This document shows positions 30,116 through 31,188 of a stretch of DNA of 64,000 bases, one piece after another. This DNA comes from Eledone cirrhosa (taxonomy: Eukaryota), in the NCBI GenBank assembly GCA_964016885.1, contig CAXHJY010001309.1, positions 1-64,000 on the forward strand, read 5' to 3'. The stretch's first letter is position 1. Each line of letters opens with the position of its first letter. The notes beneath the pieces were generated by a model, which saw only the letters and a list, made by a program, of their open reading frames with translations, searched no databases and was not told the origin of the DNA. The position numbers were made by a program, and so were the translations under genes.

Positions 30116-31143
30116 TACCTATCTTCCGGCCTCTCTAGAGAATCGTAAAAGCACATATCGCTATATGCTTTTTCTATGAAAATTAGTAGTGGGCAGACCA
30201 ACTTGCATAGAGTGTGAGTAAGTACCGGTTCAACGGAGACGATAAAAACAAATAACGAAACGAAATTAAATTTCGTTTCGTTTGTAACTCACTTTTGTAT
30301 GACTGACGCTCAAACAATTAAGTCAAAGATGTACATCCATATATGTATACTGAAATACTAGTATGTATATGAATACACACACGTATACATATGTAGATGT
30401 ACCAAGTTTTTTTTCACTGATCACTTTACTGTGAGTGGCCAGCTATTCTGTATGTAAACACACAGACAAACCGGTTTTTAGAGTCATACTGGTTTTTGAG
30501 GAAACACCTTTCCTCTATTCTCCAGAAAGCCAGACAAGGAATATTGAACTAGTTTCGTTGTTGTTACAACTCATCAGCAATATTTACCTATCTTCCGGCC
30601 TCTCTAGAGAATCGTAAAAGCACATATCGCTATATGCTTTTTCTATGAAAATTAGTAGTGGGCAGACCAACTTGCATAGAGTGTGAGTAAGTACCGGTTC
30701 AACGGAGACGATAAAAACAAATAACGAAACGAAATTAAATTTCGTTTCGTTTGTAACTCACTTTTGTATGACTGACGCTCAAACAATTAAGTCAAAGATG
30801 TACATCCATATATGTATACTGAAATACTAGTATGTATATGAATACACACACGTATACATATGTAGATGTACCAAGTTTTTTTTTCACTGATCACTTTACT
30901 GTGAGTGGCCAGCTATTCTGTATGTAAACACACAGACAAACCGGTTTTTAGAGTCATACTGGTTTTTGAGGAAACACCTTTCCTCTATTCTCCAGAAAGC
31001 CAGACAAGGAATATTGAACTAGTTTCGTTGTTGTTACAACTCATCAGCAATATTTACCTATCTTCCGGCCTATAGCGATATGTGCTTTTCGCATATAGCG
31101 ATATGTGCTTTTACGATTCTCTAGAGAGGCCGGAAGATAGGTA

Positions 31144-31188
31144 AATATTGCTGATGAGTTGTAACAACAACGAAACTAGTTCAATATT
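31144..31188 (+). ncRNA. Minimal type I hammerhead ribozyme; identical copies start at 31613, 32080, 32548, 33016, 33485, 33954, 34423, 34890, 35359 and 35829
   Basis: AATATTG-CTGATGA-GTTGT aaca ACAAC-GAAAC ta GTT-CAATATT: 7-bp stem I, perfect core, 5-bp stem II, palindromic stem III AACTAGTT, predicted cleavage after 31181. Confidence 0.92.

Follow-up and report, generated by a model that had tools for sequence, protein, structure and literature searches.

Which enzyme mobilises the retrozymes of animal genomes, and how does the inverted copy found at the end of Penelope-like elements (PLEs) arise? The locus described here bears on both questions. The mobilising enzyme has so far been argued from co-occurrence and sequence kinship, and the ends of an insertion are a more direct record of it. 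A dependence of retrozymes on PLEs was proposed by Cervera and de la Pena (2020, PMC7229834), and the link has also been argued from co-occurrence together with the phylogeny of the pLTRs (Li, Clavereau and Pollet 2026, bioRxiv 10.64898/2026.07.22.740005); inverted arrays, tails and microsatellite targets go unmentioned in the main texts of these two papers, supplements aside. Our literature search, to which subscription papers were mostly external, found no report of inverted, tailed retrozyme arrays, and supplements could hold such cases. The components are known and the retrozyme-PLE link has already been proposed; what is added here is evidence from the insertion ends of a multi-unit array and the asymmetry of its arms.

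Organization of the array and its junction

The window (the whole 64-kb stretch of DNA that was analysed) contains a 6.3-kb retrozyme array, arranged head-to-head, built from a 469-nt unit with a type I hammerhead and embedded in a TA microsatellite. Its parts are the following, with unit position 1 set at 31091.

28485..29772, no strand: left (TA)n-type tract (target), interrupted near 29377-29455 by a small unrelated island
29773..31070, minus strand: left arm, inverted, of 1298 nt or ~2.8 units, starting (5') at unit 38 (37) and ending (outer 3') at unit 396
31071..31089, plus strand: 19-nt templated filler, exact sense copy of unit 4-22
31090..31090, no strand: extra C, continuous with neither neighbour
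31091..36099, plus strand: right arm of 5009 nt or ~10.7 units, starting (5') at unit 1 and ending (outer 3') at unit 324
36100..36607, no strand: right (TA)n-type tract (target), abutting the right arm

The left arm terminates in CTTCCGGCC at 31070, and T31071 is compatible with both the arm and the filler, which gives 1 nt of microhomology. The filler makes up most of an 11-bp hairpin at unit -4..22, and its match to unit 4-22 was equalled in 0 of 2000 shuffles. Read on the bottom strand, the junction runs antisense to unit 1, then G, then antisense from 22 to 4 and then sense from 38, and the inner (5') ends of the two arms, at unit 1 and 38, lie 37 nt apart in unit phase. The initial annotation had described this layout (arm end at 31070, filler at 31071-31089, restart of the right arm) and it is borne out, with the addition of C31090, which had been overlooked. 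It had also placed the ribozymes facing away from the junction and (TA)n at both outer ends; all 14 hammerhead cores (3 on the minus and 11 on the plus strand) do face outwards, and the tracts are seen on the 29773 and the 36099 sides. Since both flanks are (TA)n, no target-site duplication is readable. The island at 29377-29455 within the left tract is GC-richer than its surroundings and has its last 35 nt tandemly duplicated.

There are no substitutions among the 13.5 units, indicating that the array is either very young or homogenised. The eight differences from the first right-arm unit are, every one, single-base homopolymer indels, and such a restricted set indicates that errors of the long-read type are present in the assembly. 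No mirrored variants were found between the arms, a comparison that is neutral between two primings and snap-back (both set out below), since all 8 variants resemble homopolymer errors.

The hammerhead and the retrozyme unit

Each unit has one hammerhead, spanning unit 54-98, with 14 cores in the ~13.5 units. The two that lie on either side of the junction are:

31010..31054, minus strand: type I hammerhead of the left arm, closest to the junction
31144..31188, plus strand: type I hammerhead of the first right-arm unit, with a 7-bp stem I, a 5-bp stem II and a very short palindromic helix III

Against Rfam HH9 the unit hammerhead scored 37.7 bits (E 4.9e-8), which falls short of the gathering score of 52, and at the gathering threshold Rfam gave 0 matches in the 64-kb window. 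By the standard hammerhead numbering and core consensus, the cut is predicted after 31181 (unit 91), at a GUU triplet. With this triplet and a minimal helix III, self-cleavage is expected to be weak or dimer-dependent. We considered and rejected ribozyme cleavage as the origin of the 5' ends of the arms, which sit 54 and 91 nt upstream of the predicted cut; their location away from it is consistent with an uncleaved multimer or a circle as template.

The unit has a GC content of 0.36, its RNA folds with a z of -9.0 against shuffles, and its single 60-aa frame has no Pfam match. By its anatomy it is a putative metazoan non-LTR retrozyme of a new family. It shares with these elements the tandem non-coding units with one type I hammerhead each, a GC of ~36% and a self-paired RNA (PMC7229834), and its helix III is weak and palindromic, like that of the axolotl HHR_Amex1 type. 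At 469 nt it is longer than the 170-400 nt given for retrozymes in the abstract of PMC7229834 and within the 51-972 range of bioRxiv 10.64898/2026.07.22.740005. In the latter, local growth of arrays from a pLTR is suggested, whereas the array described here looks inserted as a multimer. A near-identical unit was found in public run X4 as one 503-nt circular contig with a depth of 10. Runs labelled as 17 organisms contain 19-79% of the words of the unit, and these could be relatives, transfer or cross-contamination. None of the runs listed with the unit is an RNA run, a result that carries no information about expression. Exact-pattern scans for the unit gave 0 matches in metagenome contigs and 0 in viral contigs.

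Two recurring 3' ends and a one-sided tail

The outer ends of the array meet (TA)n at different positions of the unit, 396 in the left arm and 324 in the right one. The features concerned are:

29773..29844, minus strand: 72-nt 'tail', unit 325-396, the excess of the left arm's outer end over the right arm's in unit phase
56754..56958, minus strand: older relative of the unit, matching it at 82.5% across 200 nt (56766-56957, unit 127-326), with an AT tract after unit 322

In public samples, the segment 31031-31559 was compared with the contigs of 4 of the 24 runs listed, and the evidence comes from those 4. Runs X1 and X3 are one sample, from what we call organism A, in which the unit family is very deep. 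Among the 12 of 66 loose ends shown, an (AT)n loose end was found at 31486 (unit 396), with 12 contigs in X1 and another 12 in X3, plus one contig at 31487, and the other site appeared as loose ends at 31412 (unit 322; 1 and 2 contigs) and at 31416 (unit 326; 3 contigs). The chance of both ends in the window landing on the two recurring sites is, roughly, 1.4e-4. The organism A sample may be the window's own source. As the window has one end of each kind, most of the organism A contigs with those ends represent other loci or variants, and the majority allele in organism A departs from the window at 31526 and 31529. Among the relatives within the window, 56754-56958 gives way to an AT tract after unit 322, and 18030-18135 stops near the 396 site (the latter judged by eye). 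The recurrence of the same end sites in the array, in the organism A contigs and in the window relatives indicates that the 469-nt unit family has two fixed 3' ends ~72 nt apart, and the array has one of each. A further diverged older relative, 44831-45230, retains a decayed hammerhead.

Neither a contig spanning the array junction nor a strand-changing joint is among those listed in the organism A comparison, in which a 1% share filter was applied and contigs show presence only; single-locus joints would fall below this filter, so the lack of a listed joint is not absence. Likewise, the 0.79 word share of X1-X3 is blind to the junction, with 72 of the 541 distinct words outside the unit and 57 sampled. 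One contig of X1 has a loose end before 31183 that appears to be a fold-back centred on a 6-nt palindrome just past the predicted ribozyme cut, and could also be a core-deleted variant unit.

Small fold-backs elsewhere in the window

A tiled scan of the window gave 30 inverted-repeat rows. From these, 13 rows made by microsatellites were dropped, together with 5 more in which a microsatellite forms the centre or is entangled with the repeat (22322, 23136, 24007, 26938 and 57410). With the addition of 36608, which the scan had fused with its TA flanks, 13 fold-backs were retained. Ten of the 13 have one arm end at most 4 nt from a (TA)n or (ATT)n tract (null expectation 5.8% per side within 12 nt), and the other three (23456, 26821 and 47840) have no arm end within 4 nt of such a tract. 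The ten that adjoin microsatellites belong to several families:

8217..8428, no strand: fold-back
8527..9022, no strand: fold-back with an 11-nt templated filler and a ~66-nt tail, followed by an imperfect AT tract
9366..9583, no strand: fold-back
9596..10157, no strand: fold-back
10463..10657, no strand: fold-back
23658..23859, no strand: fold-back
25868..26066, no strand: fold-back
36608..36795, no strand: second-family hammerhead fold-back flanked by TA on either side, with arms identical at 58/60 positions and a one-sided tail of 72 nt
46650..47255, no strand: hammerhead fold-back, 56-nt one-sided tail, duplicated filler at a 25-nt offset
58944..59060, no strand: fold-back

A perfect tract lies 36-74 nt past the other arm in six of the ten, the tails being 63 nt (8217), 36 nt (9633), 70 nt (23728), 72 nt (36608), 56 nt (46706) and 74 nt (58944, possibly composite). 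Three more (8527, 9425 and 25868) have an imperfect tract at ~59-72 nt, judged by eye, and 10463 is without a tail. Outward hammerhead-like cores are present in six of the ten, spacers range from 2 to 54 nt across the whole set, and the loops measure 2-4 nt in four. The small fold-backs had been described as sharing the geometry of the array, and this holds for these ten, including older ones whose arms have diverged (~86-98% identity) and still show the same layout. The two fillers that had been pointed out are indeed templated. The one at 8736-8746 has a 9-nt exact local match (shuffle p 0.013) and the one at 46972-46993 an 11-nt exact match (p 0.004; 23/27 at the 25-nt offset). They are the only ones among the six spacers tested besides that of the array, the remaining four giving p values of 0.10-0.96. 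Frames for a PLE N-terminus running through the tails were sought in 9 arms, and none was convincing. As far as their sequence can tell, the ten would represent a dense set of PLE-type stumps, most of them with a one-sided tail of 36-74 nt.

In the second family, each of three fold-backs (36608, 23728 and 25868) has one short-site and one long-site end, and the solo copies 13432 and 48598 end at the short and at the long site, respectively. The structure of this family is kept in 88.5% of cells with one covarying pair, a weak signal given that 40 of 500 shuffles were as high. In the fold-backs at 8217-8365, 23728-23859, 25868-25993 and 36608-36723, the loops measure 2-4 nt and the centre coincides with the base of stem I, 4-10 nt upstream of the core. 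Centres at the base of stem I suggest that the RNA has a fixed 5' end, or a stop, at this point.

Origin of the array

PLE insertions are described as carrying an inverted, 5'-truncated copy, a tail of 30-40 bp at one end only and a bias towards (TA)n (PMC8557442, PMC3846280). Furthermore, AT-rich DNA is nicked and extended on both strands by the purified Poseidon protein, which initiates reverse transcription at two internal positions delimiting the tail and takes mostly uncleaved RNA as template (PMC11167929). The array carries the PLE set of insertion-end features, with head-to-head arms, ends at 396 and 324, (TA)n on both sides, a templated filler and no substitutions. Like the EN+ PLEs (Penelope/Poseidon, Neptune, Naiad; PMC3846280, PMC8557442, PMC11167929) it has a head-to-head inverted 5' copy, a tail at one end, two fixed 3' ends, a (TA)n target and a hammerhead near the 5' junction. 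Unlike them it has no RT/GIY-YIG ORF and both of its arms are multi-unit; its 72-nt tail exceeds the published 30-40 nt, a point that counts against an insertion of PLE type. This footprint suggests that PLEs spread such ribozyme repeats through animal genomes by copying them, and it is highly probable that PLE machinery mobilised the array, whatever the route.

The initial annotation had proposed integration by a PLE reverse transcriptase. This is supported by the recurring outer ends, the (TA)n target and the ten similar fold-backs, the filler not being the evidence. As a PLE-specific mark the filler was rejected, given that templated fillers and snap-back junctions are also produced by L1 and R2 (PMC11702581, PMC11371274). 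The further claim that the locus would directly link retrozymes to PLEs was overstated: neither a PLE enzyme nor a parent pLTR turned up, and the link itself had been proposed in print before. Among the 106 frames scanned with Pfam, of the 152 listed in the window, none codes for a PLE RT plus GIY-YIG, and the sole relevant matches are pieces of a LINE-type RT at 3817-4958. The array itself is non-autonomous.

As for the route, we tentatively favour a recent insertion of a non-autonomous retrozyme through two primings, with a PLE RT and its GIY-YIG nuclease provided in trans. The PLE enzyme would nick both strands of the (TA)n tract, and each nick would prime reverse transcription of uncleaved multimeric (or circular) retrozyme RNA, the two primings using one each of a pair of fixed internal start sites separated by 72 nt. 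Both cDNAs, of 1.3 kb and 5 kb, would halt shortly upstream of the ribozyme, after which the 3' end of one might briefly prime on the other, copy 19 nt, release and re-join at the tip. The location of the tail on the shorter arm favours two primings over snap-back, since the tail-less arm cannot then be a plain fold-back copy of the tailed one. Two cDNA primings, also put forward in the initial annotation, are thus the leading model, although they are not established against snap-back. They require that the two cDNAs ended almost in phase with each other (unit 1 and 38), as they would, for example, if the RNA began upstream of the ribozyme, and the 37 nt between the 5' ends as well as the 2-4-nt loops in 4/10 fold-backs are simpler under snap-back. 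Joining by template switching, the other part of that proposal, is one reading of the junction; an identical sequence would result if, during end-joining, one end had primed abortively on the other.

The main alternative, which we regard as possible and somewhat less likely, is a PLE insertion with a single cDNA, whose 3' end would slip back 22 nt, re-copy 19 nt, fold and prime the inverted arm on itself. At the other tail border, a cut or a stop would then terminate the far end before it was joined to the flank, and the long arm would be either the primary cDNA or the result of later array growth. Such snap-back has a documented precedent in R2 (PMC11371274) and has been put forward for Penelope (PMC3846280), where palindromes with close ends were interpreted as self-priming. 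It accounts for 5' ends that are near in phase both in the array and in every one of the ten fold-backs, and the loose end at 31183 in X1 reads as a fold-back, with the reservation that it is one contig and possibly a core-deleted variant unit. The arm lengths speak against it: in the small fold-backs the primary cDNA would be the tailed arm, yet in the array the tailed arm has 1/4 of the length of the other, so that snap-back needs either this rule reversed or growth of the array without any substitution. In addition, the proposed fold has 1 nt of microhomology and a loop of ~56 nt. The filler fits a 22-nt back-slip before folding and abortive priming on the opposite cDNA end equally, and therefore does not decide the route.

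It is improbable that the layout reflects two separate insertions in one TA tract, or a later inversion or fusion at the DNA level, with polymerase-theta-like end-joining and the filler as a repair insertion. Short templated and inverted insertions do form at DNA breaks without retroelements (PMC11724301), and two independent insertions would likewise put each end at a start site, but no TA is left at the junction and the arms have no substitutions between them. Moreover, there is one long-site and one short-site end, and the same layout is found in ten small elements from several families.

Twin priming by an AP-endonuclease LINE, for example the one at 3817-5724, also in (TA)n, is very unlikely. 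The same outward polarity would be expected (PMC11702581), and a LINE RT fragment is present in the window. The array shares with L1 twin-priming inversions and R2 snap-back the outward arms and an inversion point marked by short duplications or templated bases (PMC11702581, PMC11371274), and differs from both by its two fixed internal ends, its overlapping arms and the lack of poly(A) or a site-specific target. Neither the array nor the fold-backs show the L1 combination of poly(A), inner breakpoints 1-10 nt apart and non-overlapping arms. The array has no simple-repeat tail of the element's own either, the 5' end of its long arm is 73 nt in phase from the priming site of the short arm, vs 1-10 nt, and the arms of the fold-backs overlap completely, which is not given by twin priming on one template. 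Equally unlikely is a sequencing or assembly chimera (a fold-back read, or a mis-join in the tandem array), which agrees with the long-read error pattern of 8/8 unit differences and the absence of the junction from the listed organism A contigs (1% filter), but not with flanks that are no mirror images of each other, making a whole-read fold-back chimera unlikely, with unequal arms ending at two biologically recurring sites or with a layout shared by older fold-backs whose arms have diverged.

Under the favoured two primings, we suggest more speculatively that the whole 13.5-unit array may have been written in one event by a dimeric PLE enzyme, as two cDNAs begun at start sites that lie 72 nt from each other on a multimeric or circular RNA left uncleaved. 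If this is true, the PLE 'tail' would reflect how far the priming sites of the two strands lie from each other, the inverted pLTR would be a second cDNA and not a snap-back product, and ribozyme satellite arrays would arise ready-made. Having multi-unit and unequal arms, the array separates the two models of how the inverted end of PLEs is formed, which monomeric palindromes cannot do, and a genome with ~10 such events per 64 kb would let counting answer the questions of both the mobilising enzyme and the origin of the inverted end.

Other elements in the window

The LINE-type RT fragment at 3817-5724 is frameshifted and lies between TA tracts; its first 60-120 nt recur at ~2555-2610 and 3074-3190 within the TA tract. 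Inverted pairs of another kind, with complex arms around a central microsatellite or spacer and up to 97-99% identical, are found at 22322-22589, 23136-23453, 24007-24683 and 57410-57833. Another short element, TA-flanked and hairpin-rich, is present in two copies of opposite orientation at 37956-38124 and 50232-50374, and a minisatellite with 18 copies of a 42-nt repeat occupies 51578-52328.
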